Source of the DNA: Desulfocapsa sulfexigens DSM 10523
Lineage (GTDB): Bacteria > Desulfobacterota > Desulfobulbia > Desulfobulbales > Desulfocapsaceae
Length of the DNA: 32,000 nucleotides
NCBI RefSeq assembly: GCF_000341395.1
Contig: NC_020304.1
Coordinates: forward strand, 30,001 to 62,000
Direction of reading: 5' to 3'
Made by a program: the position numbers and the translations under genes. Within the stretch, counting starts at the first letter, position 1, and every line of letters starts with the position of its first letter. The notes beneath the pieces are model-generated. The model did no database searches, was not told the DNA's origin, and worked only from the letters and a program-made list of their open reading frames with translations. Below, piece after piece: positions 5,402-25,829 of this stretch.

Positions 5402-6999
5402 GCTACACTGACCTGCCCTGGATAATCCAGCACCGCGAAGATAGATGTACCCTCTGTGGTCATTGTACCGCAGTTTGTCCTAAAGAGGCAATCTATCTCG
5501 CCTATAGACGCCAGAGGATGCCAAAACTTGACGTCCTCAAGAAAAAACGCGGCAATGAATACCGTACTTTTGTCGGTATCCGCCAGAAAAAGAACATGGC
5601 CAATGCCTGCATCGGTTGCTCCATGTGCTCCATGGTCTGTCCAAACGAGGCAATCCAGCCCGTTCCCAATACTAACGAGCACAGAACTCTCTTCTTCAAC
5701 AACCAGAAGGGTGAGCCCATGAAGCGTGGCGGCAGACGTAACGAAGTCGGCCCCACCCTGCTTGACAGGATCATGTTTAACCGCATTTCAATGCTCACCG
5801 ATCCGGCACTGGATGCCGGACGCCACGAGTTCAGTGTTACCACAACCCTGGGTCGCACTCTTGATCCGGCAGAGTTCCTGAAACGCACGCGCGAGGGGGG
5901 ATGGATTCCGCCAACACGGGAAATATTTCCTTTTGTAATCGGCTCCATGTCTTTTGGTGCGCTGTCGCCAAATATGTGGCTTGGGTTGCTGCAGGGTGTT
6001 GCCTATTGTAATGAAGTACTTGGTATCCCAGTCGTTATGTGTACTGGTGAAGGAGGATGTCCTCCATGGGTTCTGAAAAGCCCCTACCTCAAGTACATTG
6101 TCCTGCAGATTGCATCCGGTTATTTTGGTTGGGATGAGATCATCCGGGCCATTCCCGATATGCAGTGTGACCCTGCCGCCATAGAAATAAAATATGGTCA
6201 AGGTGCTAAACCAGGCGACGGCGGACTGCTTATGTGGTTCAAGGTCTCCAAGTTGATTGCTCGTCTTCGCGGTGTGCCCGAAGGAGTAGACCTTCCGTCG
6301 CCTCCTGTGCACCAGACGCTCTATTCCATTGAGGAATCGGTGATGAAGATGATCCAGACCCTGTCCACCGCCTTTGGTCACAAGGTTCCGATCTATCCAA
6401 AGATCTCGGCCTCAACGAGTGCCAAATCAGTACTGAATAATCTGGTACGTAATCCCTATGCCGGTGGTCTGCTGATCGATGGAATCGATGGTGGAACAGG
6501 TGCTGCTTACAACGTCTCCATGGATGCAACGGGACACCCTATTGCCTCCAATGTGCGTGAGTGCTATCTCGATCTGGTTGCACAGGGTAAGCAGAATGAA
6601 ATTCCCATTTTTGCAGCCGGCGGTATCGGTAAAAATGGTAATGTCACCCAGAATGGTCTGGCACTTATCATGCTTGGCGCATCCGGTGTTCATATTGGAA
6701 AATACGTAATGCAAGCTGCTGCAGGTTGTCTTGGCAACGAGAGAAACCGCTGCAATGTCTGCAACGTTGGTATCTGCCCGAAAGGTATCACCAGTCAGAA
6801 TCCTAAACTGTACCGTCGTCTTGATCCCGATCAGGTAGCGGAACGTGTCGCTGAGGTATTTATGTCCATCCGTACTGAGATGAAGAAGGTCATGGCACCG
6901 CTTGGACGTTCCCAGTCCCTGCCGGTTGGCATGTCCGATGCTCTGGGAATTGGTGACAAGGATGCTGCCGACAGACTAAATATAAAATATGTATGTTAG
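5359..6999 (+). CDS. Glutamate synthase FMN/Fe-S catalytic subunit (GltB domain 2) with an N-terminal 2x[4Fe-4S] ferredoxin module
   Basis: The ferredoxin module shows CTLCGHCTAVCP and CIGCSMCSMVCP. The TIM-barrel signature follows: FVIGSMSFGALS, IEIKYGQGAKPGDGG, LIDGIDGGTGAA, AAGGI. The start overlaps the upstream gene by 43 nt. No later ATG would keep the first Cys cluster. Confidence 0.85.
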   Translation: MVSARSVSVGPGSLSYTDLPWIIQHREDRCTLCGHCTAVCPKEAIYLAYRRQRMPKLDVLKKKRGNEYRTFVGIRQKKNMANACIGCSMCSMVCPNEAIQPVPNTNEHRTLFFNNQKGEPMKRGGRRNEVGPTLLDRIMFNRISMLTDPALDAGRHEFSVTTTLGRTLDPAEFLKRTREGGWIPPTREIFPFVIGSMSFGALSPNMWLGLLQGVAYCNEVLGIPVVMCTGEGGCPPWVLKSPYLKYIVLQIASGYFGWDEIIRAIPDMQCDPAAIEIKYGQGAKPGDGGLLMWFKVSKLIARLRGVPEGVDLPSPPVHQTLYSIEESVMKMIQTLSTAFGHKVPIYPKISASTSAKSVLNNLVRNPYAGGLLIDGIDGGTGAAYNVSMDATGHPIASNVRECYLDLVAQGKQNEIPIFAAGGIGKNGNVTQNGLALIMLGASGVHIGKYVMQAAAGCLGNERNRCNVCNVGICPKGITSQNPKLYRRLDPDQVAERVAEVFMSIRTEMKKVMAPLGRSQSLPVGMSDALGIGDKDAADRLNIKYVC

Positions 7000-7147: not shown

Positions 7148-9511
7148 GTGAGTGCTACTGTTGTAAAAGGCCTGGACAAAAATGGCCGTAGAATCAGTTC
7201 CATGGACTTTGAAGCCATGGTTCAGGCAGCTGCCAGAACAAGCAGCTCCATCCAGATCGAATCCATGGGCCAACATAACCTTGGAATTCGACTGCAGCAT
7301 GCAGACGGTTTGTCCATTGAAGTATCCGGACCCACCGGACAGCGTCTTGGCTGCATGGGAATGCCTGGAACCACCATCACCTGTAAAGGTGCAGCATCCG
7401 ACGATGTCGGCTACCTGAACATTGGTGCAGAAATCACCGTACTTGGCGATGCCACCAATGGTGTCTGTAATGCCATGGCCAACGGAAAAGTCTATATAGG
7501 CGGATCAATTGGTGCCCGTGGACTGACCATGACCAAATGGAATCCAGATTACGAAAAACCCGAGCTCTGGGTACTCGGCTCTGCAGGTGATTCCTTTGCA
7601 GAGTTTAATTGTGGCGGCGTAGCTGTTATTTGCGGTGAGAATGCAAAAAACCCCGAAAATGTTACCGGCTATCGTCCCTGTGTGGGAATGGTTGGCGGCA
7701 CCATCTTTTTCCGTGGTAAAACAGACAATTCTTATTCCAGAAATAATGCCCGTCTGGCACCTCCGACGGATGAACAGTGGCAGTGGCTCGAAGAAAACAT
7801 GCCTGGCTATCTTGGGAAAATCGGGCGTGAAGATCTAAAAAATTCCCTCCTGGTTCGCGATGAATGGCAGGTATTAAATGCTGTTTCCCCACAGGAAAGG
7901 GCATTGCTTTTCTCAGGCCCCATGCCCATGGCTGAATTTCGCAATAAACACTGGAATCAGGCTTTTGGTGGTGGAGACCCGCTTCGCGATCTGGCACCCG
8001 GCCTTGACCGTAGCCCAATTGGGGCAGTACCCACCGGGGATATGCGCCGCAAGAAACCCTATTGGGCCAACCGTGAGTCAGCAGCTCCCTGTACCTATTA
8101 TTGTCCGGTGCATATTCCCACCGTTGACCGTTTACGATTGATCCGTGACGGACAGATAGACGAAGCTTATGAAATGCTGCTTCAATATACACCGCTGCCT
8201 GCATCTGTCTGCGGTGCTGTTTGCCCGAATCTCTGCATGGAGAACTGCTCCCGCCAGGGAGTGGATGATCCTATTGACGTTCAGGTACTTGGTCGATCCG
8301 TAAGTTCTGCCAGATCTCCTGAAGTTGCAGCTTCACTTGGGAAAAAGGTTGCCATCGTTGGTGGTGGGCCTGCTGGAATGAATGCTGCCTGGCAGCTTGC
8401 TCACGCCGGTGTTGAAGCCCATATATTCGAAAAAGACGATTTTATCGGTGGTAAGCTTGCCCAGGTAATTCCATGGGAACGACTGTCCCAGGCCATATGG
8501 GATCAGGAAGTAAAACGGTTCCTGGAAACTCCAAACATTCACACCAACCTTGGCGTGGATATGAGCAAGGAAACTTTCGCCAAACTTAAAGAAGAATTTG
8601 ATTATGTGATTGTTGCAGTTGGAACCCACGAGCCTCGCAAGATTCCCTTTCCTGGACATGAAACAGTTATCCCGGCACTTGACTTCCTGAAAAAAGCAAA
8701 GAGTGCAACTCCTGAGAAGGTTGGCAAAGAAGTCGTTATTATCGGAGCTGGTAATGTTGGTTGTGATGTAGCCTGTGAAGCCTATCGGCTTGGTGCGGAA
8801 AAGGTAACGCTCGTTGATATCCAGAAACCTCTTGCTTTTGGTAAGGAAAAGGAAGCAGCCGAGGCACTTGGTGCGGAATTTCGCTGGCCCGTTATGACCA
8901 GAGAAGTCACTCCTGAAGGCCTTGTAATGGATACCGGTGAGCTCATTCCTGCTCAGACAGTTATCATCTCCATTGGTGATGTTCCCAAACTCCAGTTCCT
9001 TCCAGACTCCGTTGAAACGCTTAGTATTGGAGGTGCGGCCTGGCTAAAAACCAATGAAGCACATCTCACCACCGATGCCAAAGTTCTTGCCATTGGTGAC
9101 GTTGAAAGACCTGGTCTTGCAACCAATGCTCTTGGTGCCGGTAAGACAGCTGCAGAATATATTATTTCGCAGTTCAAGGGAGAAGAGTGGAAACCTTTTA
9201 CGAAAAAGGTAATCACTCAACAGGCACTGACCATTACTCATTACATTCCCGATCTTGAGCATGAGCATTCCCAGGAAAACTCCGCCGAGCGTTGTCTATC
9301 CTGCGCGTCATGCCGTGACTGCCACCTCTGCGAGACAATCTGTCCAGAAGGTGCTATTAGTCGCAGAGAGCTTGAATTTGCTCACACAAATGGCTACGAA
9401 TCCGGGCTTGGAGCATCCTATGAGTATGTTTCCGATGATAAAAAATGTATAGCATGTGGATTTTGTGCCGATACCTGCCCCTGCGGAATCTGGACACTGA
9501 GACCCTTCTAG
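7148..9511 (+). CDS. Fusion protein: glutamate synthase GXGXG domain (GltB domain 3) + GltD-like FAD/NAD(P)H oxidoreductase + C-terminal 2x[4Fe-4S] ferredoxin
   Basis: A GTG start has AAGGAG upstream. The beta-helix GXGXG region covers residues ~60-190. A GltD-type Cys region follows (CTYYCP...CGAVCPNLCMENC). The dinucleotide folds are VAIVGGGPAG and VVIIGAGNVG. The C-terminus carries CRDCHLCETICP and CIACGFCADTCP. Confidence 0.85.
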   Translation: MSATVVKGLDKNGRRISSMDFEAMVQAAARTSSSIQIESMGQHNLGIRLQHADGLSIEVSGPTGQRLGCMGMPGTTITCKGAASDDVGYLNIGAEITVLGDATNGVCNAMANGKVYIGGSIGARGLTMTKWNPDYEKPELWVLGSAGDSFAEFNCGGVAVICGENAKNPENVTGYRPCVGMVGGTIFFRGKTDNSYSRNNARLAPPTDEQWQWLEENMPGYLGKIGREDLKNSLLVRDEWQVLNAVSPQERALLFSGPMPMAEFRNKHWNQAFGGGDPLRDLAPGLDRSPIGAVPTGDMRRKKPYWANRESAAPCTYYCPVHIPTVDRLRLIRDGQIDEAYEMLLQYTPLPASVCGAVCPNLCMENCSRQGVDDPIDVQVLGRSVSSARSPEVAASLGKKVAIVGGGPAGMNAAWQLAHAGVEAHIFEKDDFIGGKLAQVIPWERLSQAIWDQEVKRFLETPNIHTNLGVDMSKETFAKLKEEFDYVIVAVGTHEPRKIPFPGHETVIPALDFLKKAKSATPEKVGKEVVIIGAGNVGCDVACEAYRLGAEKVTLVDIQKPLAFGKEKEAAEALGAEFRWPVMTREVTPEGLVMDTGELIPAQTVIISIGDVPKLQFLPDSVETLSIGGAAWLKTNEAHLTTDAKVLAIGDVERPGLATNALGAGKTAAEYIISQFKGEEWKPFTKKVITQQALTITHYIPDLEHEHSQENSAERCLSCASCRDCHLCETICPEGAISRRELEFAHTNGYESGLGASYEYVSDDKKCIACGFCADTCPCGIWTLRPF

Positions 9512-10688: not shown

Positions 10689-11216
10689 TCACCTCTCACC
10701 CTGCAGAAAACGAATAAGGAGTTGCTCAAGATCCGACTGGGCCGTAAGAACTACTCCTGTCTTGAGTTCCAACTTTCTCAGTTCCTCTGTGTTTGACTCT
10801 TTCCGAATACGTTTACAAAGATAATTTAAACAGAATATTGGCTTAAAGAGCAGAATACAGCCGCCGGTTCCAAGGAAGCAACACTCTACACCATTATCGC
10901 ACACAGGCCTCACGTCCACTCCCGCTAGAATATTCATAAGAAGGAGCAGGGCATCATTGTTTTCATTGCCCATATAAACACTGCAGCAACCACCTTTTGG
11001 AGCTGCAGCGCATCTGGTACAGGTTTTCCCCATATTCATTGCTGTCATATGAGTATCAAGTAACACCACCTTATCCCTGACACTTCTCAGTTGATCCACT
11101 ATCTCTTCCTGTTGTAAGAGTCCTTTTCCATAAACTTCCAATAACTGCCTGGCTTTTTCTAGCTTCACTGCGCCATCACCGCAATAACAGGTGCTGATAA
11201 TCGTCAGATAATTCAT
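10689..11216 (-). CDS. Cysteine-cluster protein, possibly YkgJ/CxxCxxCC-like metal-binding (175 aa)
   Basis: The Cys patterns are CTRCAAAPKGGCC and CCFLGTGGCILLFKPIFCLNYLC. The ATG at 11216 has an AGGTGA SD lying over the PBP stop codon. An alternative GTG at 11225 overlaps that stop as GTGA. Confidence 0.45.
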   Translation of the reverse strand: MNYLTIISTCYCGDGAVKLEKARQLLEVYGKGLLQQEEIVDQLRSVRDKVVLLDTHMTAMNMGKTCTRCAAAPKGGCCSVYMGNENNDALLLLMNILAGVDVRPVCDNGVECCFLGTGGCILLFKPIFCLNYLCKRIRKESNTEELRKLELKTGVVLTAQSDLEQLLIRFLQGER

Positions 11217-11221
11217 AGGTT

Positions 11222-13078
11222 TCACCTGGTACTGACTCCACTCATAAATTCACGCCAGACAGGTGCCGCAACGACGCCCCCGTTTCTTCCATTTCCAAGG
11301 CTTTTATTGTCGTCATAACCAAACCACACTCCAGTAAGTGTTTTGTCGGAAAACCCAACAAACCATGCATCTCTGTTATCGTTGGTGGTGCCAGTTTTCC
11401 CTCCGGAGACGGTTCCTAAACCGCCGGCTCTTTTTCCTGTCCCATTGCGAATAACCTCACTCAACAGTCCTTTCATAACACTGGCGACTGAGGAACTCAG
11501 CACCTGGTTTCCAGTGGGTGTGTCTCGAAAAATTTTCCTGCCACCGTTAGAATCTATTCCGCTGATGAGTGTAGGAGAAAAATACTGTCCCTTACAGACA
11601 AATGGTGAGTACGCCGCAGTAATTTCAAGCAAAGAAACACCGGTGGCTCCAAGTGCAAGAGAGAGATCAGAAGTTATGGGAGGCCTTATCCCAAAGGCCT
11701 CTGCAAGTTTCTGAACCCTTTTAATACCAACCTGTTGCAGTAATTTTATGGCAATGATATTTCTGGATTTCACCAGCGCTACTCGTAATGTGGTCTCACC
11801 AAAATACTTCCCGGAAAAATTTCTTGGCCTCCACTCCTTTCCGTCATGGCCGCGAATGGCAAATGGCGAATCCATCAGGGTAGAGTCCGGTGTAAACCCT
11901 TTTGTAAAGGCTGCGGCATAGAGAAGAGGTTTAAACAAAGATCCTGCTGAACGTCTGGCTTGAGTCGCACGATCAAAAGCACTCGTATTAAAATCACGAC
12001 CACCTACTAAAGCTCTGACCCTTCCATTACAGGTATCAAGTGAAACAATTGCTCCCTGCACCTCCTTATCCCCTGAAAAGGAAGAATCCAACCCACGTGT
12101 AAGGGCCGCAGCAGCCAACTGCTGTTGCCTTGAGTCCATGGTAGTATGGATCCGTATTCCCGCACGATTCAGTGATTTCCCAATTATTTTTTCCGCTTGT
12201 TTTGTTACCAGTTGAATAAAATAGCCATTCACTGCTCTTTTTTGATCTGGCTTTTCGGCAAGTTTCAGAGAACGCAGATAGGCATTTTGGGCAGAGGCTT
12301 CACTTACATACCCGTCTGCTGCCATACGATTCAAGACATAGCGCTGCCTCTCAAGGGCAGCATTCATATTTTTGTGCGGAGAGTACCTGCTCGGTGCCTG
12401 GGGTAAACCGGCTAGGATTGCGGCCTCTCCAAGCTTCAAATCCCGGGCACGCTTCCCAAAATACACCTGTGAAGCTGCCTCCACGCCATAGGCACCACTG
12501 CCAAGATAAATCTGATTAAGATAAATATAGAGAATCTCATCCTTACTGAGGAGGGTATCAATCCGCCACGCAAGAATTGCTTCCTTAAATTTTCGGAGGA
12601 AGGTTTTTTCAGGGGTGAGCAGGAGAGACCGCGCCACCTGCTGCGTAATGGTAGAACCTCCCTGTGCACGACGTCCACTGCGCACGTTATTGATTACAGC
12701 TCGAAATACCGACCAGACATCAAGACCCGGATGTTCAAAAAAACGACCATCTTCTGCTGCGACAAAAGCCTGAGGAAGATAGGCCGGCATCTGTGACAGT
12801 GGAACAACAGTCCGGTTTTCGGTGAAAACTCGTTCAATGACATTTCCGTGCCTATCGAGAATTTCTGTAGCCTGGGCAGGTTTATACTCAGCAACACTTC
12901 TGATGTCAGGAATTTTCAACAAAGACAGAATAAGAAGGAGACTACCAAGAAAAACCGTCAGACTAACACTTATAGCAAAAAGAAAACCAATGATGTGCTT
13001 TTCACCATAGGGCTTTGAATAGACACGTTTCGGTTTCGCCACAGAACGTGGCGGCGTTTCTTTTTTAGCTGCTGGCAC
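11222..13078 (-). CDS. Class A penicillin-binding protein (glycosyltransferase GT51 + transpeptidase), PBP1A-like
   Basis: The GT51 motifs are EDGRFFEHPG and GGSTITQQ. The transpeptidase motifs are SLFKP (SxxK), SRN and KTGTT. An N-terminal TM anchor is present. The GTG start is uncertain. Confidence 0.9.
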   Translation of the reverse strand: MPAAKKETPPRSVAKPKRVYSKPYGEKHIIGFLFAISVSLTVFLGSLLLILSLLKIPDIRSVAEYKPAQATEILDRHGNVIERVFTENRTVVPLSQMPAYLPQAFVAAEDGRFFEHPGLDVWSVFRAVINNVRSGRRAQGGSTITQQVARSLLLTPEKTFLRKFKEAILAWRIDTLLSKDEILYIYLNQIYLGSGAYGVEAASQVYFGKRARDLKLGEAAILAGLPQAPSRYSPHKNMNAALERQRYVLNRMAADGYVSEASAQNAYLRSLKLAEKPDQKRAVNGYFIQLVTKQAEKIIGKSLNRAGIRIHTTMDSRQQQLAAAALTRGLDSSFSGDKEVQGAIVSLDTCNGRVRALVGGRDFNTSAFDRATQARRSAGSLFKPLLYAAAFTKGFTPDSTLMDSPFAIRGHDGKEWRPRNFSGKYFGETTLRVALVKSRNIIAIKLLQQVGIKRVQKLAEAFGIRPPITSDLSLALGATGVSLLEITAAYSPFVCKGQYFSPTLISGIDSNGGRKIFRDTPTGNQVLSSSVASVMKGLLSEVIRNGTGKRAGGLGTVSGGKTGTTNDNRDAWFVGFSDKTLTGVWFGYDDNKSLGNGRNGGVVAAPVWREFMSGVSTR

Positions 13079-13257
13079 AATAATTAAGGACGCTGGTCAA
13101 AGGACTGAAAAAAAAACAATAATGGGGAAAAAGCCCACTCATCAGTTACAAAGGATTTCACGACAAACATTTTCCAGTGCCTCAAAAACGAGCGATCCGG
13201 TCACTTTATAGAAATATGGCCAGATCACTCATTACCAGATGCCGGAGAGGTCACCAA

Positions 13258-14523
13258 TCAACCAAAAACGCCTTTCAGGAAGAAGAAAAATACCATTGCC
13301 ATGATTGCGCCGGCCGGCAGAGTAACAATCCAGGAAACAATAATATTCAGGATCACTCGCAGATCAAGGGCACCAATCCCCCGGGCCAGCCCAACGCCAA
13401 GAACCGCACCAACCAGAATATGTGTGGTCGAAACCGGCAAACCAGTACGGGATGCGAGAACAACCGTACTGGCAGCAGCCAGCTCCGCACAAAAACCACG
13501 TGACGGAGTCAGCTCTGTAATCTTGGTGCCGACGGTCAACATCACTCTATAGCCAAGAGTGACAAGGCCGACAACAATTCCTGTGCCACCAACAAAGAGT
13601 ATCCAGACAGGCATTTCAGACGACTGCATGACTTCACCACCCGATGTAACAATACTGATAACTGCTGCAAGAGGTCCTATTCCGTTAGCAACATCATTGG
13701 AGCCATGAGCAAAGGCCATGGAACAGGCAGTAAAAAGCATCATTGGGGTGAACACCTTTTCCACACTCGCAAAATGAAAATCGCGGTCCGCTTCGGTATC
13801 CTCCTTTACCTTTCTGATAAAAAACATGCCAATAGAGCTGGTAAGAAGACCAATACAGATCGCCAACCCAAAACTCTGTGGTCCTGTAAGTTCTATATGA
13901 AGATGCGCCAAGCCCTTAAACAGGGTCACCAGAGAGATTATAAAGCCTACCAGAAAAATATAGTACGGAGCATATTTTTTGGCATTCCTCAGCGGATTTT
14001 CCGTGTCGAAAATTAATTTCCGAGTCGACAGAACAAGAAGAAACGCGATGGTACCGCCAATGGCCGGAGAGATTACCCAGCTCGCAACAATCTTCCCAAC
14101 CTTTCCCCAGTTCACAGCATCCGGACCGATACCAACAACTGCAAAACCAATTAAAGCACCGACAATGGAGTGAGTGGTAGAGACAGGCCATCCCTTACTC
14201 GATGCGATCATCAGCCACACGGCTGCGGCAAGCAATGCGGCAAGCATTCCATAGACCAGGATCTCCGGTGTTGCAATGATGTTTGTTGGATCTATAATTC
14301 CCTTACGAATTGTTTTAGTGACGTTTCCGCCAGCAAGCACAGCGCCGGCAAACTCAAAAACAATCGCAATACCAATTGCCTGTTTTACCGTTACAGCACC
14401 TGCTCCAACGGATGTGCCCATGGCATTTGCCAGATCATTGGCCCCAATGCCCCATGTCATATAGAGGCCAAAGATTACAGCAAGTGTAATCATAATTGTT
14501 CCATACGCAGCAATAACTTCCAT
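13258..14523 (-). CDS. Inorganic phosphate transporter, PiT family
   Basis: The signature is duplicated (GANDLANAMGTSVG and GSNDVANGIGPL), the protein is polytopic, and it pairs with a DUF47 gene. Confidence 0.9.
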   Translation of the reverse strand: MEVIAAYGTIMITLAVIFGLYMTWGIGANDLANAMGTSVGAGAVTVKQAIGIAIVFEFAGAVLAGGNVTKTIRKGIIDPTNIIATPEILVYGMLAALLAAAVWLMIASSKGWPVSTTHSIVGALIGFAVVGIGPDAVNWGKVGKIVASWVISPAIGGTIAFLLVLSTRKLIFDTENPLRNAKKYAPYYIFLVGFIISLVTLFKGLAHLHIELTGPQSFGLAICIGLLTSSIGMFFIRKVKEDTEADRDFHFASVEKVFTPMMLFTACSMAFAHGSNDVANGIGPLAAVISIVTSGGEVMQSSEMPVWILFVGGTGIVVGLVTLGYRVMLTVGTKITELTPSRGFCAELAAASTVVLASRTGLPVSTTHILVGAVLGVGLARGIGALDLRVILNIIVSWIVTLPAGAIMAMVFFFFLKGVFG

Positions 14524-14594
14524 TTTATCTCTCTTCCCTTAGTGTGAACAGCTTAACGACTTCATTCAATATAACTTTTTCCAGAGTCAATCGT

Positions 14595-15281
14595 CTACTT
14601 AGACAGAAACAACAGCAGACGATCGGCCATGTTTTCAGCGTGATCTGAAATATTACCAATCTCTTCAATGATCCGATACCAGAACATGACAGAAACGGGA
14701 TCCAGTTCTTTTTCAATAGTGAAAAGCGTCCGGTTCACCTTCTTCAGAATTTTATCAAGATTATGTTCTGATTTACGTACACCATCGATCATACGGGATA
14801 CCTTATCATGCTCCCTGCCGCTGAATCCGACATGCACTAATTCATCAAGCTCTTCAACCATGTTCTTTGCCTGGGTGATTATCTCCATGGTTCCCTCAAG
14901 CAACTCATCCAGTCCGCCCTTAATGGCGTCGGGCACCGTCATATCCCGATTTACCAGAAGCTGACTGATTTTCTCAACACCATCTGCTACAGAATCCTGT
15001 TCATGAATCAGACTAAGTAGATCCTTTCTGTCAACGGGAAGCAACAGAGTCTTCGGCATATTGTGCCTGTACGTCGCCTTGATCCCATCCGCTTCAGTTT
15101 CCAGAACCCCTATCTGCCCTGCAAGCTCAGTCACCTCACCCTGCTCTTTTCTATAAAGTGCATCAAAAAGGGCGGGCAGTAACATAACACAGGAAAAAAC
15201 TGTCCGCATATGTTCCTGAATTGGCTTAAACGGTGACTTTCGAAGTAAACCCGCTAAGGGGTTCGTTGACATTGCTACCAT
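14595..15281 (-). CDS. DUF47/TIGR00153-type PhoU-like phosphate transport regulator
   Basis: It is a 228-aa helical protein lying immediately upstream of the PiT gene, which is the classic DUF47-Pit pair. A GAGGGAGAA RBS is present. Confidence 0.75.
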   Translation of the reverse strand: MVAMSTNPLAGLLRKSPFKPIQEHMRTVFSCVMLLPALFDALYRKEQGEVTELAGQIGVLETEADGIKATYRHNMPKTLLLPVDRKDLLSLIHEQDSVADGVEKISQLLVNRDMTVPDAIKGGLDELLEGTMEIITQAKNMVEELDELVHVGFSGREHDKVSRMIDGVRKSEHNLDKILKKVNRTLFTIEKELDPVSVMFWYRIIEEIGNISDHAENMADRLLLFLSK

Positions 15282-15336
15282 AATATATTTCTCCCTCTCT
15301 TGAGAACTGTTAAAGATAAACAGAATTTCATAGGAC

Positions 15337-17418
15337 TCATTTCATTTCATTTATTATTTTCGTTAAGGGTTCCGCCGGATAGCTTAACGGTATCATTTTT
15401 TTATGTATCTGTATAAAAAGACTCGGCCCGTCTTCACGACCACTGTATATAATATGATGCCCCTTGATATTTCCAACATTTTTCCAAAAACTATTAAAGG
15501 GATCAAGGGGTGTATGGCCAACCACAAATGGGGTTCGTTTAGGAAGTCCAAGGCTTCTCCGAAACTGTTTCACATCCCTTTTCTCATAACCGGCTAAGTA
15601 ATGAGATCGCTTGAGCCTGTTCGTTAAAAGTTCATAACATATTTCAGGATAACTTCGAAGATTAATCAGTTTTTCGCGACTGAGTTCCTTCCGCGGAGGA
15701 GCTGCATGACACGCCACACAGGAATCAGTTTTCATTACAATGGGAAGTCCATTGTAAAACTTCTGCATCTCCTCGACATACTCTTCCCCCCGCAATTCCT
15801 GAAGTCTTTTCCGCATCAAAACCCCCTGAAAGACCCCGCTCTTTGCAAGAGAGTTATCAAAGCTGTCATGATTGCCGAGAAGATAAAAGAAATTTTCGGG
15901 AAAATGGCATTTCATTTTAAAAATCAGATCCATCATCAATATGGAGCTATCCATATCTTCCATCTCTTTTGGAAGTTCGGAATGAATTGCATCCCCAAGA
16001 ATAATGAGAGCAGCACGATTTGAGGCCAGGTGAGCAAGAAGGCAATTTTCATTTAGAATTTTCAGAAAATTATCTACCCGGGCATGGAGATCACCAACAA
16101 TCAGTAGTCTTAAATCATCGGGAAGCTCAAGGAGTGCACCAGATGCACCATTGTCATCTTTTTCCCTATAGGGCTCACTGGAAAGGATTGTATTGACCTC
16201 TTTGATACTTTCCATAGCCTCAAGGGGGGGCAGCATGGTGATGGATTCCCCATAGATTTCACGAATACCCAAAATTGCATTATAGCGATTCGTCCCGATC
16301 CGTTCCCGAATATCCTGTTCTCCACTTCGAACAATCTGGATCGGGGTATTGCCATCGAGGGGACTGATTCTTAAATCACCCTTGATATTCATAACCGTCA
16401 AATGTCTTTTCGCCACACTGTTCGGAAAATGAAAAATTTCATCATACTGGTGATTATCGCGACCGATGAGCACCCTTTCTCCAACTCGTATTCTGGCAAA
16501 ACCATTGATAGTATCAGCCGTACACGCCTTAGATGGAGAAATCAGCCAGTTTTTCTGAATATTCTTTTTCTTTACCCCGATGGGAATCTCCGGGTGAAAA
16601 ACAAGCTTCTGCTCCCCAATAATCATTTCAAATGTTTTTCCGTCGTGGGGAATACGACAGTCTTTATCGAGTACCTGTAATTTATCGGTTACTGTGAACC
16701 ACTCTATGGGGTCCCTGCGTAAAAGCAGAGACTTCCAACCGGAGAAGGTCTTCAGATCCCGTTGATGGTCAGACTCTTCTCTGGCCCATTTTGGAACATT
16801 GACGTCATCCTTCCCAGCTATTCGCATGGGGGGCTTATTCAGTCCGCCACGGACATACACCTGCATCTTTGCCTGATGCATATACAAGGCGACTTCACGG
16901 TAAATATCCACTTGACGAATGACCATCTCCAATGTCAGGTTTTTATCCACAGGGAAGTACCCTTCCTTATGTCGCTCCATACGCTGTCTGAATATAGTTT
17001 GAGGATCGGGAAGCAGAAACTCGAAAATATAACGGTTTCTCCAGTCTGTCTGGAAAAAATATTTTTTTTCAGGCGGAATCTGAATTTTTTCAAGCTCTAG
17101 AAATAAAGGCTCCTCCGCTTCCAGCCATTCCTTATCAAAAACAGTTAAGGCCTCGGAAAACCCTTTAAACGGAAAACCAAGGTGCACCTCGCGCGGCCTG
17201 TAGGTAAGTGTTTGATCTTTCCACCATCCCTTGCGGGTTAAATCCACATACCCTTCATTAGGCCAACCATGCACATGATTAATATAATAGGTCTTGCCAG
17301 CTCCAGGAGGACCGGTTACCACCAGTTGAACAAAATTCAGACGAACCGGCAGCTGCACACCACGTATATTCTGAAGATGTTCTATGGGGACAAGATTTTT
17401 TTTCAGGGGATCAAGCAT
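15337..17418 (-). CDS. Multidomain protein: N-terminal P-loop NTPase/kinase-like + FHA-like domain + C-terminal calcineurin-type metallophosphoesterase
   Basis: The Walker A motif GPPGAGKT covers residues 36-43 (nt 17290-17313). The FHA-like stretch is VLIGRDN...VAKRHLTV...ISPLDGNTPIQI, residues ~305-365. The phosphoesterase motifs are GDLHA (442), GDAIHSE (475), GNHD (515), CHAAP (570) and GHTP (634). Confidence 0.7.
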   Translation of the reverse strand: MLDPLKKNLVPIEHLQNIRGVQLPVRLNFVQLVVTGPPGAGKTYYINHVHGWPNEGYVDLTRKGWWKDQTLTYRPREVHLGFPFKGFSEALTVFDKEWLEAEEPLFLELEKIQIPPEKKYFFQTDWRNRYIFEFLLPDPQTIFRQRMERHKEGYFPVDKNLTLEMVIRQVDIYREVALYMHQAKMQVYVRGGLNKPPMRIAGKDDVNVPKWAREESDHQRDLKTFSGWKSLLLRRDPIEWFTVTDKLQVLDKDCRIPHDGKTFEMIIGEQKLVFHPEIPIGVKKKNIQKNWLISPSKACTADTINGFARIRVGERVLIGRDNHQYDEIFHFPNSVAKRHLTVMNIKGDLRISPLDGNTPIQIVRSGEQDIRERIGTNRYNAILGIREIYGESITMLPPLEAMESIKEVNTILSSEPYREKDDNGASGALLELPDDLRLLIVGDLHARVDNFLKILNENCLLAHLASNRAALIILGDAIHSELPKEMEDMDSSILMMDLIFKMKCHFPENFFYLLGNHDSFDNSLAKSGVFQGVLMRKRLQELRGEEYVEEMQKFYNGLPIVMKTDSCVACHAAPPRKELSREKLINLRSYPEICYELLTNRLKRSHYLAGYEKRDVKQFRRSLGLPKRTPFVVGHTPLDPFNSFWKNVGNIKGHHIIYSGREDGPSLFIQIHKKMIPLSYPAEPLTKIINEMK

Positions 17419-17571
17419 GACTCTTAAAAAAACTAAGGTAAACGTGAAAAAACTGTTATATTACGCTATCAGTTAGTGGAATCTGTAATAAGGATATTGC
17501 TTATACAGCTTACCACGAAATTTAAACCCGGGTAAACCAGATTCTCTAAATTCTCAGTTCCTCCTTATCCT

Positions 17572-19413
17572 ATGTCAAAAATTCGTGTCCTTCCTGAACA
17601 ACTTGCCAATCGCATTGCTGCAGGTGAAGTGGTGGAACGCCCGGCTTCGGTTGTTAAAGAACTCATTGAAAACAGTCTGGATGCAGGTGCCACCAGAATT
17701 GAAATTGAAGTTGAGGATGGTGGGACACGACTGATCCGGATCATTGACAACGGTGAAGGCATGGATGAGGACGACGTCCTTCTCTGCCTGGAGCGCCATG
17801 GCACGTCAAAAATCCTCGCCGATGCTGATCTTGAGGCCATCAACTCCCTGGGCTTTCGCGGTGAAGCAATCCCTTCTATCTCTTCAGTCTCACGAATGAC
17901 CATCACTTCAAGGGAACAATCTGCAGATTTTGGCACTACAGCCGTTCTGAATTACGGAAAGCTTTATAAAATCCACGAAACCGGATCTGCACGCGGAACC
18001 ATCGTTGAAATAAGAAATTTGTTCGGAAACACTCCTGCCCGAAGAAAATTCCTCCGCACCAAACGTACTGAGCTGGGACACATTGATGAAGTTGTTAAAA
18101 ATTACGCCCTTGCGGCACCTCAGGTTGCCTTTATCCTCCGAATTGACACCAGGCAGACACTGCATCTGGACCATAGCCAGGGCCTTGCCCAGCGTCTTGC
18201 CACCGTTTTGCACTACAGCGGCTCTTTTATCGAAATCGGCTACTCCGAACCCGGTAGTTCCCTGCCACGCCTCAGCGGTCTTCTGGTGCCACCCGACTCA
18301 CCTCTGACCGGATCTGCCCGTATAAAAATACTGGTTAACGGGAGATCTGTTAAAGACAGGATGCTTACCCACGGCGTTGCTGAAGGATTACGCGGCTTTC
18401 TTATGAAAGGACGAAATCCCGCTGGCCTTCTCCACCTCCACCTTGACCCGGCCGACGTTGACGTTAACGTTCATCCAACCAAACAGGAAGTACGATTCAG
18501 ACGAAGCAGAGACATACATCAGCTTATCGTCCAGGCCATTCAGCAGGGCATGCAGGGGTATCAACAAACCCTGAAGAGTTCTTTTTTCAAATCTCCAGCC
18601 GCTGCAGTATCCCACCCCGAATCATCCAGCAAAGGAAAGCCCTACACCGCCCCTTCTGTTGTGCCACTTCAGACGGTAATCAAAACAGAAGAGCAGATTA
18701 AAACAGTGATACCGGAGACCTTTCCGACTGTCACCACATCTACTGCAGAACCGCTCCCGCAAATAGAAAGATCAACGACAACATCACTGCAAAACCAGTC
18801 GCCAAGACCGACCCCTCTGCCACAGGAACCCCAGGGACACGGTCTGAAGATTATTGGCCAGTACGACAAACTCTATATTTTCTGCCAGTCAAGCGACGGC
18901 CTGGTTGTCATTGACCAGCATGCGGCACATGAACGTCTGCTTTTCGAAAAACTCAAAAAACAATTTCTCAAGGGAAATATCACCCGCCAGACTCTCCTCT
19001 TTCCGGAAACCATCGAACTCTCCGTGGTAGACACCGCCAAGGTTGAACAGTACGGTCAGGAGATTGACAAGATGGGATTTACAATACGTGAATTCGGCGG
19101 TAATTCCTATGTTATTTCTGCAGTCCCCGCCCTGGGAAATCATCTTGCCCCTGCTGAACTGTTTTTCGATATCCTGGAACAGTTCGGTAGCCCGACAGGC
19201 AATCAACGAAAGGGCTCACTCCTCGAAGATGTTCTTGCCTCAATGGCCTGCAAAGCTGCGATAAAATCGGGAGATGCACTCTCATTAAAAGAAATCGAGG
19301 CACTCCTTGACAGCATGGCGCGTGCCGATCTCTTTTCCCACTGTCCTCATGGGAGGCCTGTACTGAAGCAGTTCACGGAAACGGAAATAAAAAAATGGTT
19401 TCACCGCTCCTGA
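17572..19413 (+). CDS. mutL: DNA mismatch repair protein MutL
   Basis: The GHKL ATPase N-terminus reads IRVLPEQLANRIAAGEVVERPASVVKELIENSLDAGAT...DNGEGM. The C-terminal dimerisation domain has QHAAHERLLFE and a CPHGRP end. Confidence 0.95.
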   Translation: MSKIRVLPEQLANRIAAGEVVERPASVVKELIENSLDAGATRIEIEVEDGGTRLIRIIDNGEGMDEDDVLLCLERHGTSKILADADLEAINSLGFRGEAIPSISSVSRMTITSREQSADFGTTAVLNYGKLYKIHETGSARGTIVEIRNLFGNTPARRKFLRTKRTELGHIDEVVKNYALAAPQVAFILRIDTRQTLHLDHSQGLAQRLATVLHYSGSFIEIGYSEPGSSLPRLSGLLVPPDSPLTGSARIKILVNGRSVKDRMLTHGVAEGLRGFLMKGRNPAGLLHLHLDPADVDVNVHPTKQEVRFRRSRDIHQLIVQAIQQGMQGYQQTLKSSFFKSPAAAVSHPESSSKGKPYTAPSVVPLQTVIKTEEQIKTVIPETFPTVTTSTAEPLPQIERSTTTSLQNQSPRPTPLPQEPQGHGLKIIGQYDKLYIFCQSSDGLVVIDQHAAHERLLFEKLKKQFLKGNITRQTLLFPETIELSVVDTAKVEQYGQEIDKMGFTIREFGGNSYVISAVPALGNHLAPAELFFDILEQFGSPTGNQRKGSLLEDVLASMACKAAIKSGDALSLKEIEALLDSMARADLFSHCPHGRPVLKQFTETEIKKWFHRS

Positions 19414-23565: not shown

Positions 23566-23863
23566 TTCTTGCATCCTCCATACCTTCGTTTTTCCCTAAC
23601 AAGTTTTTCATTACTACTTGCTGAATTTAGGGCAAGTATAGCACCTCTTCTTTTAAATGAAAGCAAGAAATCGAAAAACTTATTGTTTTTTCAGGACCTT
23701 CAAAGCAATAAACGAAATTCTTTAACTGCTCCATTCTCTCCCTCTACACGCCTTTCTCCTTGACAAACATGCCTAAGCTCTACTAAAAATAGGTTAGGAG
23801 AAAGGAAATTCTTTGATTAAGAATAGTTACCATATGAATATGAAGTTTCTTCGGGGAGAAACC

Positions 23864-25600
23864 ATGATAAAGCGTTACACCATGATCGGTCTTGCTGGCG
23901 CAGTGCTTTCAGCGCAGGTGTTCACAGGGACAGCATTTGCTGGACAAACAGCATTGTCACAGGAAGAACTTATAAATGAAATCAACATGTTGAAAAACAT
24001 TGTTCTGGATCTCAACGAACGTCTTGCCGGAGCAGAAGAGATGCTCCAGATGTCTCTTGAGATGAAAGAACAGCAGGATGCTCAAGTTGCGGATGTTGTA
24101 GAGGTTGTTGATGAACTTGACGAACGACTTGGTGACGCCGAAAAACATACCGCACTGGACAGAGTTACCATGGGTGTAGAACTTCAGACCCAGCTCAACT
24201 CCATTCATATGGACGTAGCAACCATGCCTGCAGCCAGTCAAATAATGATTGGTCAGATGGCTGTTGCAGGGTCACAGTTCTCCTCAGCTGAAATGGCCCA
24301 GATCCAGCAGATGATGAAACAGCAGGGGACTGAAAAACAATCTATTGATAATGATGCTCTTTTCACCAGTCGCATCCGTCTGGATCTTAAAGCAAAACCA
24401 GCCAACTCCCTTTCCTTTGTCGGACGTCTCTCAGCAGCCAAAGTTTTCGGCGATTCTACGGGAGTCAAATGGTACAATGGTGGCCCCAATGCAGTCACAA
24501 TGGATGGCAACATCCACAGTAATGGTAGTGACTCAGCCCTCCGTGTAGAGCGTGCCTTCTTTACCTATTTTGGCGATATGGGTGACGTTCCCTATCACTT
24601 CTCCCTAGGCAGGCGTCCCGCACTCGGTGGTGCCCCTGCTGAATTTTCAACATCCAGTATGGTTGGTGGCTCCCCCATGGCCCATGGTATCAACTGGCAG
24701 TTTGATGGTGCCTCCCTTGGTTTCGGCCTTGCCGACATAACAGGAATTCCTGGAGCGAACTTCAAACTATGCTGGGGGGTTGGCTTTGAGTCCGGAGTCG
24801 GTTCAGGAAACTCCTACTCCATGTCCTACAATTCTGACATCGATGACATGCAGTTTGGAGGATGGATTGCCAATCTGTACCAAGATGAAAACACTACAAT
24901 AACAAACATGTATGCCCATGCGGCAAACGTAACCGATGGATTCTCCGGTCTCGTTGTTACCCCCTTCACTTTGAATGGCCAGGATCTTAATGGTGACGGA
25001 CAATACGACCAATTTCAAATGAACGCCAATGATGGCGCCTATATCAGCCGTACAGAACCTACTGCTAATATCGGCTCCATTGACATCGTCACCCTGCTTG
25101 CACAATCAAAATTTGCCCAGGTTGATTTTTTTGTTGATTTGGCCATGAGCCATGCCAGACCTTCAGGACTTTCAGCAAACCCAACCATGCAACTCCTTGG
25201 TACTGACGCTCTACTTAACTCCAACGGAGAACAAAATGACCGTACTGGTTACTCTATCTGGGCCGGTGTCAAAACTGAGCTTCCATGGCAGGCAAGCATT
25301 GGATTTGAGTACAACTGGGGTTCAGAATACTGGATCGGCTTCACAGGCGGTGAAGACAATCCTGCCGGCTCCAAACTAGCTACCCGTGGATCCGTTTATG
25401 AGGTCTTCTATAACCATCCAATGGTAGAGAACAAGCTCACTCTTTCCATCGGAGCCCAGTACTATGACTACGACTACTCAGGAAGTGGTAATCCCATGGG
25501 CGCACCTGTTAAAATTGGAGAGCTGAGTGCACTTGATGCCTTTCTCCCTGTTACTGAAAGTATGTGGAACTATTACATGAACCTTGTGTATCGCTGGTAA
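23864..25600 (+). CDS. Putative outer-membrane beta-barrel protein with N-terminal coiled coil (DUF3373-like)
   Basis: GGGGAGA lies 5 nt upstream of the ATG at 23864. The signal peptide ends in TAFA|GQ. The coiled-coil stretch LSQEELINEINMLKNIVLDLNERL is followed by a long Gly/aromatic-rich region. The protein ends in ...NLVYRW, a terminal aromatic typical of OMPs. Confidence 0.6.
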   Translation: MIKRYTMIGLAGAVLSAQVFTGTAFAGQTALSQEELINEINMLKNIVLDLNERLAGAEEMLQMSLEMKEQQDAQVADVVEVVDELDERLGDAEKHTALDRVTMGVELQTQLNSIHMDVATMPAASQIMIGQMAVAGSQFSSAEMAQIQQMMKQQGTEKQSIDNDALFTSRIRLDLKAKPANSLSFVGRLSAAKVFGDSTGVKWYNGGPNAVTMDGNIHSNGSDSALRVERAFFTYFGDMGDVPYHFSLGRRPALGGAPAEFSTSSMVGGSPMAHGINWQFDGASLGFGLADITGIPGANFKLCWGVGFESGVGSGNSYSMSYNSDIDDMQFGGWIANLYQDENTTITNMYAHAANVTDGFSGLVVTPFTLNGQDLNGDGQYDQFQMNANDGAYISRTEPTANIGSIDIVTLLAQSKFAQVDFFVDLAMSHARPSGLSANPTMQLLGTDALLNSNGEQNDRTGYSIWAGVKTELPWQASIGFEYNWGSEYWIGFTGGEDNPAGSKLATRGSVYEVFYNHPMVENKLTLSIGAQYYDYDYSGSGNPMGAPVKIGELSALDAFLPVTESMWNYYMNLVYRW

Positions 25601-25651
25601 GCCACTATAAAAAACAAAACATGGCCATTGAAGTAACCGGAGCGGTATAAG

Positions 25652-25698
25652 AGCCGTAACGAAATTGATATAAATGTCTATGGTATTTCGTAACGGCT
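25652..25698 (+). other. Long-stem hairpin in the intergenic region
   Basis: AGCCGUAACGAAAU pairs with AUUUCGUAACGGCU (13 of 14 bp) around a 19-nt loop. Confidence 0.4.
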
Positions 25699-25739
25699 TC
25701 TAAGTTCTTCCTACTTGAGACTTTTTATCACCGCACAAA

Positions 25740-25777
25740 GGGGGCAGGCCGAAATTTTCGACCTGCCCCCTTTTTTT
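25740..25777 (+). terminator. Rho-independent terminator after the outer-membrane protein gene
   Basis: GGGGGCAGGCCGA pairs with UCGACCUGCCCCC (12 bp plus one mismatch), followed by T7. Confidence 0.85.
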
Positions 25778-25805
25778 GCTAATCACCTTAGAAAAACGTT
25801 CTCAA

Positions 25806-25811
25806 TATAAT
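25806..25811 (+). promoter_or_regulatory. Possible -10 box (TATAAT) for the cytochrome-rhodanese gene
   Basis: A perfect TATAAT lies 18 nt upstream of the ATG at 25830. I found no convincing -35 box. Confidence 0.3.
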
Positions 25812-25829
25812 TCATAGCTGGAGATATAC

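Follow-up and report, generated by a model that had tools for sequence, protein, structure and literature searches.

The stretch of DNA considered here, referred to as the window, comprises 32,000 nucleotides of the genome of Desulfocapsa sulfexigens DSM 10523 (contig NC_020304.1, positions 30,001 to 62,000 of the forward strand). The gene under study lies on its reverse strand and codes for a protein that joins a P-loop domain (N-domain), an FHA-like middle domain and a PPP-type phosphatase domain (C-domain); it is followed by genes for a DUF47 protein and a PiT-family phosphate transporter, and mutL is divergently adjacent. A sequence-only reading had taken the gene for a possible end-healing enzyme of the polynucleotide kinase-phosphatase (PNKP) type or, alternatively, for a self-contained phospho-signalling module. 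The open reading frame (ORF) and the motifs GPPGAGKT, GR...AKRH and GDAIH on which it drew were all recovered by translation where it had placed them. In window coordinates, and with structural assignments taken in part from an AlphaFold2 (AF2) model, the features of the locus are:

15337..17418, (-) strand: whole gene, P-loop kinase-like plus FHA-like plus PPP phosphatase; 693 amino acids (aa), ATG start
16783..17418, (-) strand: N-domain, P-loop with a predicted kinase-class fold, residues 1-212 (alignment, AF2, Foldseek)
17290..17313, (-) strand: Walker A motif GPPGAGKT, residues 36-43 (translation of the exact coordinates)
16708..16782, (-) strand: inter-domain linker, residues 213-237, predicted to be disordered
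16315..16707, (-) strand: middle beta-rich domain, residues 238-368 (AF2 secondary structure and family alignment)
16333..16518, (-) strand: core with FHA homology, residues ~301-362, holding GR and AKRH
16459..16464, (-) strand: GR motif, residues 319-320
16402..16413, (-) strand: AKRH motif, residues 336-339
15340..16314, (-) strand: PPP-type metallophosphatase domain, residues 369-693 (Pfam, PDB profile, Foldseek)
15982..15996, (-) strand: GDAIH motif, residues 475-479
14595..15281, (-) strand: DUF47/PhoU_div gene, 'Pit accessory protein' Pap, downstream of the studied gene (Pfam E=6e-49; NCBIfam TIGR00153)
13258..14523, (-) strand: PiT-family PHO4 transporter gene, next downstream (Pfam PHO4 E=2.5e-121)
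17572..19413, (+) strand: mutL, divergently adjacent across a 153-bp gap
17550..17578, (-) strand: sigma-70-like promoter match (10/12) upstream of the studied gene in the mutL-proximal intergenic region, a consensus match only
13121..13139, (-) strand: terminator-like hairpin with T-run 3' of the PiT gene, a consensus match only

Because full-length homologues of about 693 aa number 573 in a protein collection clustered at 90%, and an exhaustive profile search gathers 1107 representative clusters at an expectation value (E) of at most 1e-3, the open reading frame is a real gene far beyond chance. These 573 homologues bear no annotation more specific than 'metallophosphoesterase' or 'serine/threonine protein phosphatase', those among them that carry an organism name come from Desulfobulbales, and the closest genome record, from Desulfocapsa, shares 86% identity. 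The AF2 model of the full-length protein has a mean predicted local distance difference test score (pLDDT) of 82.

With respect to the neighbourhood, the gene is separated from the DUF47 gene by 55 nt. No terminator-like site was found between the studied gene, the DUF47 gene and the PiT gene, and one follows the PiT gene, in a promoter and terminator scan whose site counts in the window equal the shuffled expectation and which serves as a consistency check only; judged from the sequence, this pattern is consistent with a tricistronic unit. DUF47 proteins encoded beside pit are known as the Pit accessory protein Pap, the cited case being pap-pitH1 of Streptomyces (bioRxiv 10.1101/2024.05.14.594254). 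The PiT protein of the window reads GANDLAN at residue 27 and GSNDVAN at residue 274 and keeps the Asp in both signatures, and an Asp in both GANDxAN signatures characterises phosphate carriers as opposed to CysP-type sulfate carriers (PMC5840216). A sub-threshold NCBIfam match to CysP had made the latter a candidate; it was rejected on account of the two Asp residues and of the genes for PPK1, PhoU and Na/Pi cotransporters (Pi, inorganic phosphate) with which the family co-occurs.

This neighbourhood is widely conserved. Among 63 informative Desulfobulbales loci, which being related by descent are not independent observations, PHO4 lies at most 5 kb from the gene in 60 and DUF47 in 59; at a further locus (L085) the DUF47 gene is 5.4 kb away. 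The Pap-Pit linkage is also seen in about 19 of the 24 informative loci that are distant or of other architecture; the distant sample was collected by means of N-domain peptide patterns, which biases it in favour of loci containing the N-domain. Overall, at least five arrangements occur, the genes lying upstream, downstream, divergently or convergently, and the family itself being fused or split, so that co-location with DUF47/PhoU_div and PHO4 genes extends across lineages and gene orders. In Acidobacteriota (L086), for instance, the order is DUF47->PHO4->studied gene, and in Rhodospirillales (L087) the arrangement is divergent; metagenomic relatives show the linkage as well, the distant relatives sharing 33-41% identity with the window protein. 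Two near-identical contigs (L084 and L085, compared over positions 1-1607) differ upstream of the studied gene, L085 having an intact PhoU_div gene and L084 an ISL3 transposase gene together with a 36-aa DUF47 remnant.

In addition, genes for the N-domain lie near a second, unrelated family of Pi transporters, the Na/Pi cotransporters (PF02690, ~600 aa), several of which carry a C-terminal PhoU domain (YjbB-like). Such Na/Pi-cotransporter(-PhoU) genes were found in four metagenomic loci (L093, L097, L106, L110). In L118, a gene coding for an N-domain with a GAF domain and a transmembrane (TM) segment stands between the Na/Pi cotransporter gene and a PhoU_div->PHO4 pair, and in L120 a gene for a DnaJ domain fused to the N-domain directly follows a Na/Pi-cotransporter-PhoU gene, two PHO4 genes being located within ~3 kb. 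The P-loop module is thus encoded, in four architectures, at phosphate-transporter loci that include a PhoU-like element, either DUF47 or PhoU fused to the Na/Pi cotransporter. The cotransporter genes are:

L093, 2796-4604: Na/Pi cotransporter gene
L097, 13636-15456: Na/Pi cotransporter gene
L106, 2548-4344: Na/Pi cotransporter gene
L110, 1645-3438: Na/Pi cotransporter gene
L118, 3729-5558: Na/Pi cotransporter gene
L120, 4046-5875: Na/Pi cotransporter gene

Genes related to polyphosphate (polyP) are also found nearby. In L097 and L106 the gene just upstream of the N-domain gene codes for PPK1, and in L114 (Ca. Thiodiazotropha) a CHAD gene stands beside a gene for the FHA-like and PPP domains alone (FHA-PPP). 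The two PPK1 genes (L097:4876-7923 and L106:4743-7886, both on the (+) strand) have an extra N-terminal extension of ~300-350 aa, and stop no more than ~50 nt from where the standalone N-domain gene starts, abutting it in L097; a Pfam scan of this extension and of other unassigned neighbours gave no match. In L114 (7001-11274), an unassigned 254-aa ORF, a further metallophosphoesterase gene (336 aa) and the CHAD-domain gene come after the FHA-PPP gene, which has neither a Pit nor an N-domain neighbour there. Genes for CNNM/CorC proteins (DUF21-CBS-CorC), putative transporters of Mg2+ or other metals, recur in three loci (L101:4813-6360, L103:1137-2534 and L106), with a CorC_HlyC fragment in a further one (L116:9212-9535); their recurrence may relate to the transport of metal-phosphate by Pit.

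The family is modular. By the representative search, its architectures comprise the full-length form (~690 aa), the FHA-like plus PPP form (~480 aa), which is the commonest, and the N-domain alone (~200-250 aa); others are N-domain+GAF+TM proteins, DnaJ+N-domain proteins, and members of the PPP clade within proteins of one to seven thousand residues, there sometimes followed by a canonical FHA domain. Standalone N-domain proteins stop at about residue 205-210 and FHA-PPP proteins begin at about profile position 226-250, and the split point of the two-gene forms coincides with linker residues 214-235 of the window protein, where pLDDT falls below 50. Split genes are adjacent, with abutting or overlapping ends, in L093, L097, L103, L106 and L110; they form four-gene operons of the order DUF47->PHO4->N-domain->FHA-PPP in L116 and L117, and are convergent in L094, L095 and L099-L101. 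Since the P-loop and FHA-PPP halves are fused in some genomes and adjacent, operonic or convergent in others, they are likely to act together, a fused-versus-split pattern of this kind being classical evidence of joint function. The fused form is carried by Desulfobulbales (including cable bacteria), Acidobacteriota and Rhodospirillales, and the FHA-PPP form by Magnetococcales, sulfur-oxidising symbionts (Ca. Thiodiazotropha) and 'Deltaproteobacteria bacterium TL4'.

The N-domain appears as a mobile module in the GAF-TM fusions (P0226, P0231, P0262) and the DnaJ fusions (P0240, P0242, P0246), and the PPP clade is embedded in the very large proteins P0224 (7186 aa), P0247 (5866 aa), P0265, P0254, P0264, P0263, P0268, P0244 and P0252. 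Bona fide FHA domains also occur in P0244, P0252, P0264, P0265 and P0268, C-terminal to the PPP domain in most of them, and P0244 and P0252 have a signal-peptide-like N-terminus.

The C-domain matches Pfam Metallophos (PF00149) over residues 436-573 with 35.3 bits against a cut-off of 21.5, as do 69 of 74 relatives, and the family profile finds the PPP phosphatase BSU1 (E=1e-5) and PP1/PPZ1 (E ~1e-2) in the PDB, with no Mre11, lambda phosphatase or Pnkp entries among the matches. The model is confident here (pLDDT mostly 90 or above), and its top 50 Foldseek matches in the PDB are all PP1, PP2A, PP5, PPZ1 or calcineurin (E 3e-12 to 2e-10; target-normalised template modelling (TM) scores mostly 0.57-0.72). 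In addition to GDAIH, translation gives the remaining PPP motifs as GDLHA (442-446), GNHD (515-518), H571 and GHTP (634-637). The residues D443, H445, D476, N516, H517, H571 and H635 are kept in 72-74 of the 74 relatives (97-100%), down to 28% identity, and the family-specific residues H479, K526, Q531, R543, R601 and Y611 are likewise kept in 97-100%. The classical PPP signature GDxHG/GDxVDRG/GNHE is replaced by GDLHA, GDAIH-S and GNHD, the metal ligands being retained; in motif II, the second Asp is a His in 73 of the 74 relatives and the phosphate-binding Arg is found in only 13. As predicted from the sequence, the C-domain is therefore a PPP-fold phosphatase with a complete catalytic centre, because its fold matches and its metal and catalytic residues are conserved. 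The assignment of this part to the PPP metallophosphoesterases, with GDAIH in the place of motif II, which the sequence-only reading had made, is borne out (PP1/PP2A in Foldseek at E~1e-12 and a target-normalised TM score of ~0.7; BSU1/PP1 profile E=1e-5).

For the N-domain, the GxxxxGK[ST] Walker A pattern of P-loop NTPases is present as GPPGAGKT, in which G36, G41 and K42 are invariant across 35 diverse N-domains, together with W65, W66, R149 and R190. Position 133 is E or D in all 35, R146 is kept in 33, and E55, D59, R76 and D158 are nearly invariant too. Searches of Pfam and the PDB with the sequence or its profile gave only matches local to Walker A (AAA-type models; ABC, AAA and kinase chains), so that the class of the domain is not assignable by sequence, and no Pfam or NCBIfam family covers it. 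A model built from an alignment of the 35 sequences, representing four architectures, is confident (pLDDT 92.9, predicted TM-score 0.90). Its top 50 Foldseek neighbours in the PDB are all P-loop small-molecule kinases, at weak scores (best E=1.8e-3, probability up to 0.99, TM-scores 0.24-0.44), and include archaeal and eukaryotic adenylate, shikimate, deoxynucleoside, UMP/CMP, gluconate and pantothenate kinases and hCINAP; neither a polynucleotide kinase (PNK) nor a PPK2- or PPX-type structure is among them. Named matches in BFVD (best E 3.6e-4) are mostly thymidylate, adenylate, guanylate and deoxynucleoside kinases, and a putative phage polynucleotide kinase ranks 12th (E=0.015, TM-score 0.38), not above the thymidylate and adenylate kinases. 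In the model, the conserved pair R146-x-x-R149 lies within helix 139-151 as a LID Arg pair would, the similarity to the kinase-class fold being weak, and one relative (P0137) bears the JGI name 'broad-specificity NMP kinase' (NMP, nucleoside monophosphate). The N-domain is best described as a divergent kinase-class P-loop module and putative kinase, as judged from its modelled fold, which agrees with the earlier assignment of a kinase-like P-loop at the N-terminus (small-molecule kinases throughout the top 50, though weakly matched at E>=1.8e-3).

The middle domain is modelled with 11 strands over residues 248-364 (block-mean pLDDT 72-90, mostly 84-90). No Pfam or NCBIfam model covers it, and the window protein alone remains below the threshold of the Pfam FHA model (PF00498). 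This model is matched, however, by 8 of 74 relatives (best E=6.7e-6), is precomputed on relatives P0288, P0384 and P0429, and in P0201 falls on residues 108-153, which share alignment columns with window residues ~316-360. A profile of residues 238-368 from 56 sequences finds the FHA domain of Mycobacterium tuberculosis Rv0020c/FhaA in the PDB (3po8, 2lc1, 3oun; E=8e-5), followed by further FHA structures, namely CT664 (0.036; 3gqs 0.036), an Arabidopsis FHA domain (0.085) and ArnA (0.66). The aligned stretch, profile positions 64-125, corresponds to window residues ~301-362. The family hidden Markov model (HMM) of the middle domain scores ~27 bits on the bona fide FHA domains that follow the PPP clade in very large proteins. 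Homology of residues ~301-362 to the FHA core is thus supported at the level of sequence.

Only this core of ~60 residues aligns to FHA, the C-terminal FHA strands being unmatched, and the model places five strands (residues 248-295) N-terminal to it. If the domain were circularly permuted, these N-terminal strands would take the place of the C-terminal ones of FHA. An HMM permuted accordingly gained ~6-7 bits on one FHA domain, of approximate sequence, whereas on five bona fide FHA domains it did not consistently score above a reversed-segment control. Of the phosphothreonine-binding set, the window protein keeps the Arg (R320), and has A336 for the Ser and T358-P359 for the Asn-Gly. An FHA-like middle with Ser replaced by Ala had already been proposed, and both the FhaA match and A336 bear this out; the proposed 'L..GN' element of the motif, by contrast, is coincidental and lies two columns off, since in the family alignment the canonical DL-S-NGT stretch corresponds to window P353-L-D-G-N-T358-P359-I360.

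The functional statements that follow rest on sequence, predicted structure and gene neighbourhood. Because the gene adjoins phosphate-transporter rather than DNA-repair genes across several phyla, a role in phosphate or polyphosphate balance, as a regulator or an enzyme, is the most likely one, and the general statement that the protein functions in Pi/polyP homeostasis together with Pap and Pit is rather probable. More specifically, the protein might work in the cytoplasm as an enzyme accessory to a secondary phosphate-transporter module (Pap/DUF47 plus PiT-family Pit) and serve phosphate and polyphosphate homeostasis, not nucleic-acid repair; this is the best explanation, and one in which we place about even confidence. 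Of the readings put forward earlier, the self-contained phospho-signalling module comes closer to the evidence, although it missed the linkage with phosphate transporters, the feature that tells most about the gene.

As to mechanism, the P-loop domain would be a kinase, or else a nucleotide-dependent switch, that uses ATP at the transporter/PhoU-like complex. PstB works with PhoU in the Pst system, and the P-loop domain might play a parallel role by analogy. The PPP domain would take phosphate off a phosphoprotein, or possibly a small phospho-ligand, of the same complex, and the FHA-like domain might act as a docking or regulatory adaptor and not as a classical phosphothreonine reader. P-loop and PPP domains could then form a writer/eraser pair that sets the flux of Pi through Pit, and hence polyP turnover, in response to energy and Pi status. 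Pi, as their product, generally inhibits PPP enzymes, and such inhibition of the PPP domain would give a built-in Pi feedback. This specific mechanism, with writer and eraser acting on a protein, is a tentative proposal that we consider somewhat unlikely to hold as it stands.

A still wider view, speculative and rather unlikely in its entirety, is that the N-domain founds a new P-loop family which, on secondary Pi transporters, serves PhoU-like domains (DUF47/Pap, or PhoU fused to NptA) as their dedicated nucleotide-binding partner and is as such a counterpart of PstB-PhoU. With the FHA-like/PPP phosphatase it would make up a bacterial writer/eraser switch which gates Pi import or export and polyP turnover by ATP and Pi levels, analogous in prokaryotes to the control that kinases and phosphatases exert over eukaryotic Pi transporters, acting on the transporter complex or on a small phospho-signal.

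Several observations weigh against the accessory-enzyme explanation or parts of it. Regarding the gene context, FHA-PPP genes occur without a nearby transporter (L114, L115), and five Desulfobulbales loci (L035, L047, L067, L082, L083) show no Pap-Pit pair in the flanks searched, three of which still have 8 kb on both sides; intergenic gaps between the studied gene and DUF47 reach ~440 bp in some genera; and inheritance as a single cassette could explain much of the synteny, in which case the loci would not be fully independent. Regarding the domains, the N-domain, given its weak structural similarity, could be an ATPase or a switch instead of a kinase, and motif II of the form GDxxH-S implies that the substrate chemistry may differ from that of protein phosphatases. 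A classical phosphothreonine reader is disfavoured in particular, as across 74 sequences the Arg of G-R is present in 35 and the Ser of S-x-x-H in 8, and the seven commonest residues in the column of the N-G Asn do not include Asn. Finally, no biochemical or genetic data on the family were found in the literature searched.

Among the alternatives, the protein could be a metabolic enzyme of phosphate/polyphosphate or nucleotide turnover, in which the NMP-kinase-like domain moves phosphate between nucleotides or from polyP, and the PPP domain hydrolyses a phosphoanhydride or ester (polyP, Ap4A-type dinucleotides, nucleotides), making or using the Pi that Pit moves. It is in line with this that adenylate and nucleoside-monophosphate kinases are the closest structural neighbours of the N-domain, that PPK1 is encoded directly upstream in L097 and L106 with CHAD nearby in L114, and that motif II is devoid of the protein-phosphatase Arg; moreover, the PPP superfamily includes members with non-protein substrates, such as ApaH and the yeast polyphosphatase Ppn2. 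However, the PPP domain is most like protein Ser/Thr phosphatases, and the recurrence of its clade with FHA-type domains, including canonical FHA domains in the large proteins, points to protein targets, while the fusions of the N-domain to GAF-TM and DnaJ look regulatory and PPK2/PPX-type structures do not appear in the top 50. A metabolic role is accordingly unlikely, though it retains an appreciable share of the probability. The protein could also be a generic Ser/Thr phospho-signalling protein whose Pap-Pit neighbourhood reflects hitch-hiking in one inherited cassette. The adjoining PiT genes are 66-75% identical across phyla, as against 33-41% for the studied protein, which is compatible with lateral spread of a cassette, and some FHA-PPP genes stand alone (L115). 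Against this, the linkage persists through the many rearrangements described above, from upstream to convergent and from fused to split, and reaches both the second, unrelated transporter family (Na/Pi cotransporter-PhoU) and N-domain proteins that wholly lack the FHA-PPP part, which makes hitch-hiking improbable.

A PNKP-like end-healing enzyme (5'-kinase plus 3'- or 2',3'-phosphatase) tied to mismatch repair, as proposed by the sequence-only reading, could draw on the bacterial Pnkp, in which an N-terminal P-loop kinase is likewise combined with a calcineurin-type phosphoesterase, on the FHA-like domain that recalls eukaryotic PNKP, on the putative phage polynucleotide kinase at BFVD rank 12 (E=0.015), and on mutL next to the gene. 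The divergent adjacency to mutL holds in the window, but it is restricted to one clade: mutL lies within 1 kb in 19 of the 63 informative close loci, all of them from the Desulfocapsa clade, and was not seen near distant relatives in the loci examined. In other Desulfobulbales the block formed by the studied gene, DUF47 and PHO4 is inverted with respect to the PBP1A and mutL genes or lies in an unrelated region (Electrothrix). In Desulfocapsa the block is situated between mutL and the PBP1A gene, and in others (L001, L042, L045) on the far side of the divergent PBP1A-mutL pair (window 11222-19413), which indicates that the three genes moved as a unit by local inversion or transposition; an inversion of this kind would account for the Desulfocapsa-only adjacency. 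Distant relatives, in turn, have Pi-transporter genes nearby and never repair genes. Furthermore, no ligase-like adenylyltransferase domain and no HAD phosphatase domain were found in the protein, and no Hen1 in the window or among the neighbours at related loci; the best kinase-fold neighbours are adenylate kinases, with no PNK among the top 50 in the PDB, and the phosphatase is PP1-like, lambda phosphatase and Pnkp not being among its matches. With phosphate-transport partners in the place of repair partners, end healing is very improbable, and the proposal is not upheld.

Several known systems bear comparison with the protein. Like the Pnkp of the Clostridium thermocellum Pnkp/Hen1 system, it begins with a P-loop kinase-class domain and carries a binuclear metallophosphoesterase of the calcineurin type after it. 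It differs in that it has neither the C-terminal ligase/adenylyltransferase domain nor a Hen1 neighbour, that its phosphatase resembles PP1/PP2A more closely than lambda phosphatase or Pnkp, that an FHA-like domain separates the two, and that its conserved context is phosphate transport and not RNA repair. With eukaryotic PNKP it shares an FHA-type domain, a phosphatase and a P-loop kinase-class domain, whereas the domain order is reversed, the phosphatase is of the PPP/metallophosphoesterase and not of the HAD type, and PNKP reads phosphothreonine with a canonical FHA domain, while the Ser and Asn of that binding site are not conserved in the present family. The fold of the C-domain matches the PPP phosphatases PP1, PP2A and calcineurin (target-normalised TM-scores 0.65-0.72; closest structures PPZ1 5jpe/5jpf, PP1 and BSU1 9tp7), and the metal and catalytic residues of GDxH, GD, GNH[DE], H and GH are all kept; it differs from them in motif II (GDA(I/V)H-S, not GDxVDRG), in its low identity (12-17%) and in its fusion to P-loop and FHA-like domains. 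To the FHA domain of FhaA/Rv0020c, the family profile aligns along the core strands with the G-R and x-R-H motifs.

Both PhoU/PstB of the Pst system and Pap/PitH1 of Streptomyces resemble the locus in that a PhoU-like regulator is encoded with a phosphate transporter, and in the former a P-loop nucleotide-binding protein belongs to the same unit, as would the N-domain here by analogy. Unlike PstB, however, the P-loop domain is not an ABC ATPase and has a predicted kinase-class fold, it brings a PPP phosphatase with it, and it accompanies secondary transporters (PiT, NptA). HprK/P, PFK-2/FBPase-2 and PPIP5K/Vip1 may share the logic by which a single polypeptide or operon unites opposing phosphoryl-transfer activities that are linked to transport or phosphate signalling; being absent from the structure and profile matches of the protein, they are functional analogies only.

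What is new here is a multidomain kinase-like/phosphatase protein with a P-loop domain that has no Pfam or NCBIfam family, together with its well-supported and previously undescribed association with phosphate transporters; no description of the family or of its link to Pit was found in the literature, most subscription journals lying outside the search. How bacteria regulate low-affinity secondary Pi transporters (Pit, NptA/YjbB-type) is poorly understood, as is the function of the ubiquitous DUF47/Pap and PhoU-like domains. The gene family offers a concrete candidate, open to testing, for a component still missing from this picture: a kinase-like module that binds ATP, joined to an intact PP1-type phosphatase and tied genetically to the transporters and sometimes to PPK1 or CHAD. 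If the proposed role is true, it would imply a phosphorylation-based or nucleotide-dependent control of Pi flux and polyphosphate cycling, with a bearing on sediment phosphorus cycling and on polyphosphate-accumulating organisms, and would give a function to a family-less domain and to proteins annotated only as 'metallophosphoesterase'.

Further screens of the window and the family gave little. Rfam and tRNA scans of the window had no match, NCBIfam assigned no family to the protein or its split relatives, a tblastn search of PLSDB plasmids with the protein had none either, so that the family is not plasmid-borne there, and no PADLOC defence family matches the protein or its FHA-PPP relative. 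PADLOC matched two other proteins marginally, P0214 through its Walker A and the window DUF47 protein through weak similarity to PbeC (E=0.0018).

Of the other genes of the window, a 178-aa ORF (10689-11225, (-) strand) downstream of the PBP1A gene keeps its position across loci of the Desulfocapsa clade (46-69% identity) and belongs to no Pfam or NCBIfam family. Pfam gave no match at 1e-5 for two further ORFs, one of 423 aa (2696-3967, (-) strand) and one of 380 aa (4259-5401, (+) strand); the homologue of the former in L001 carries PF26745 (SPM), and the latter precedes two genes for glutamate-synthase-like Fe-S/flavoproteins (5359-6999 and 7148-9511). At 28964-31985 ((-) strand), a gene for a cNMP-binding and PilZ protein (30756-31985) overlaps the start of a 600-aa ORF whose DnaB_C/AAA_25 match is confined to the C-terminal half, leaving ~335 aa of the N-terminus unmatched. 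Finally, the region 23813-27965 ((+) strand) holds a DUF3373 gene and, after it, an ORF of 711 aa in which a cytochrome c7-like multihaem region and two rhodanese domains occur together.

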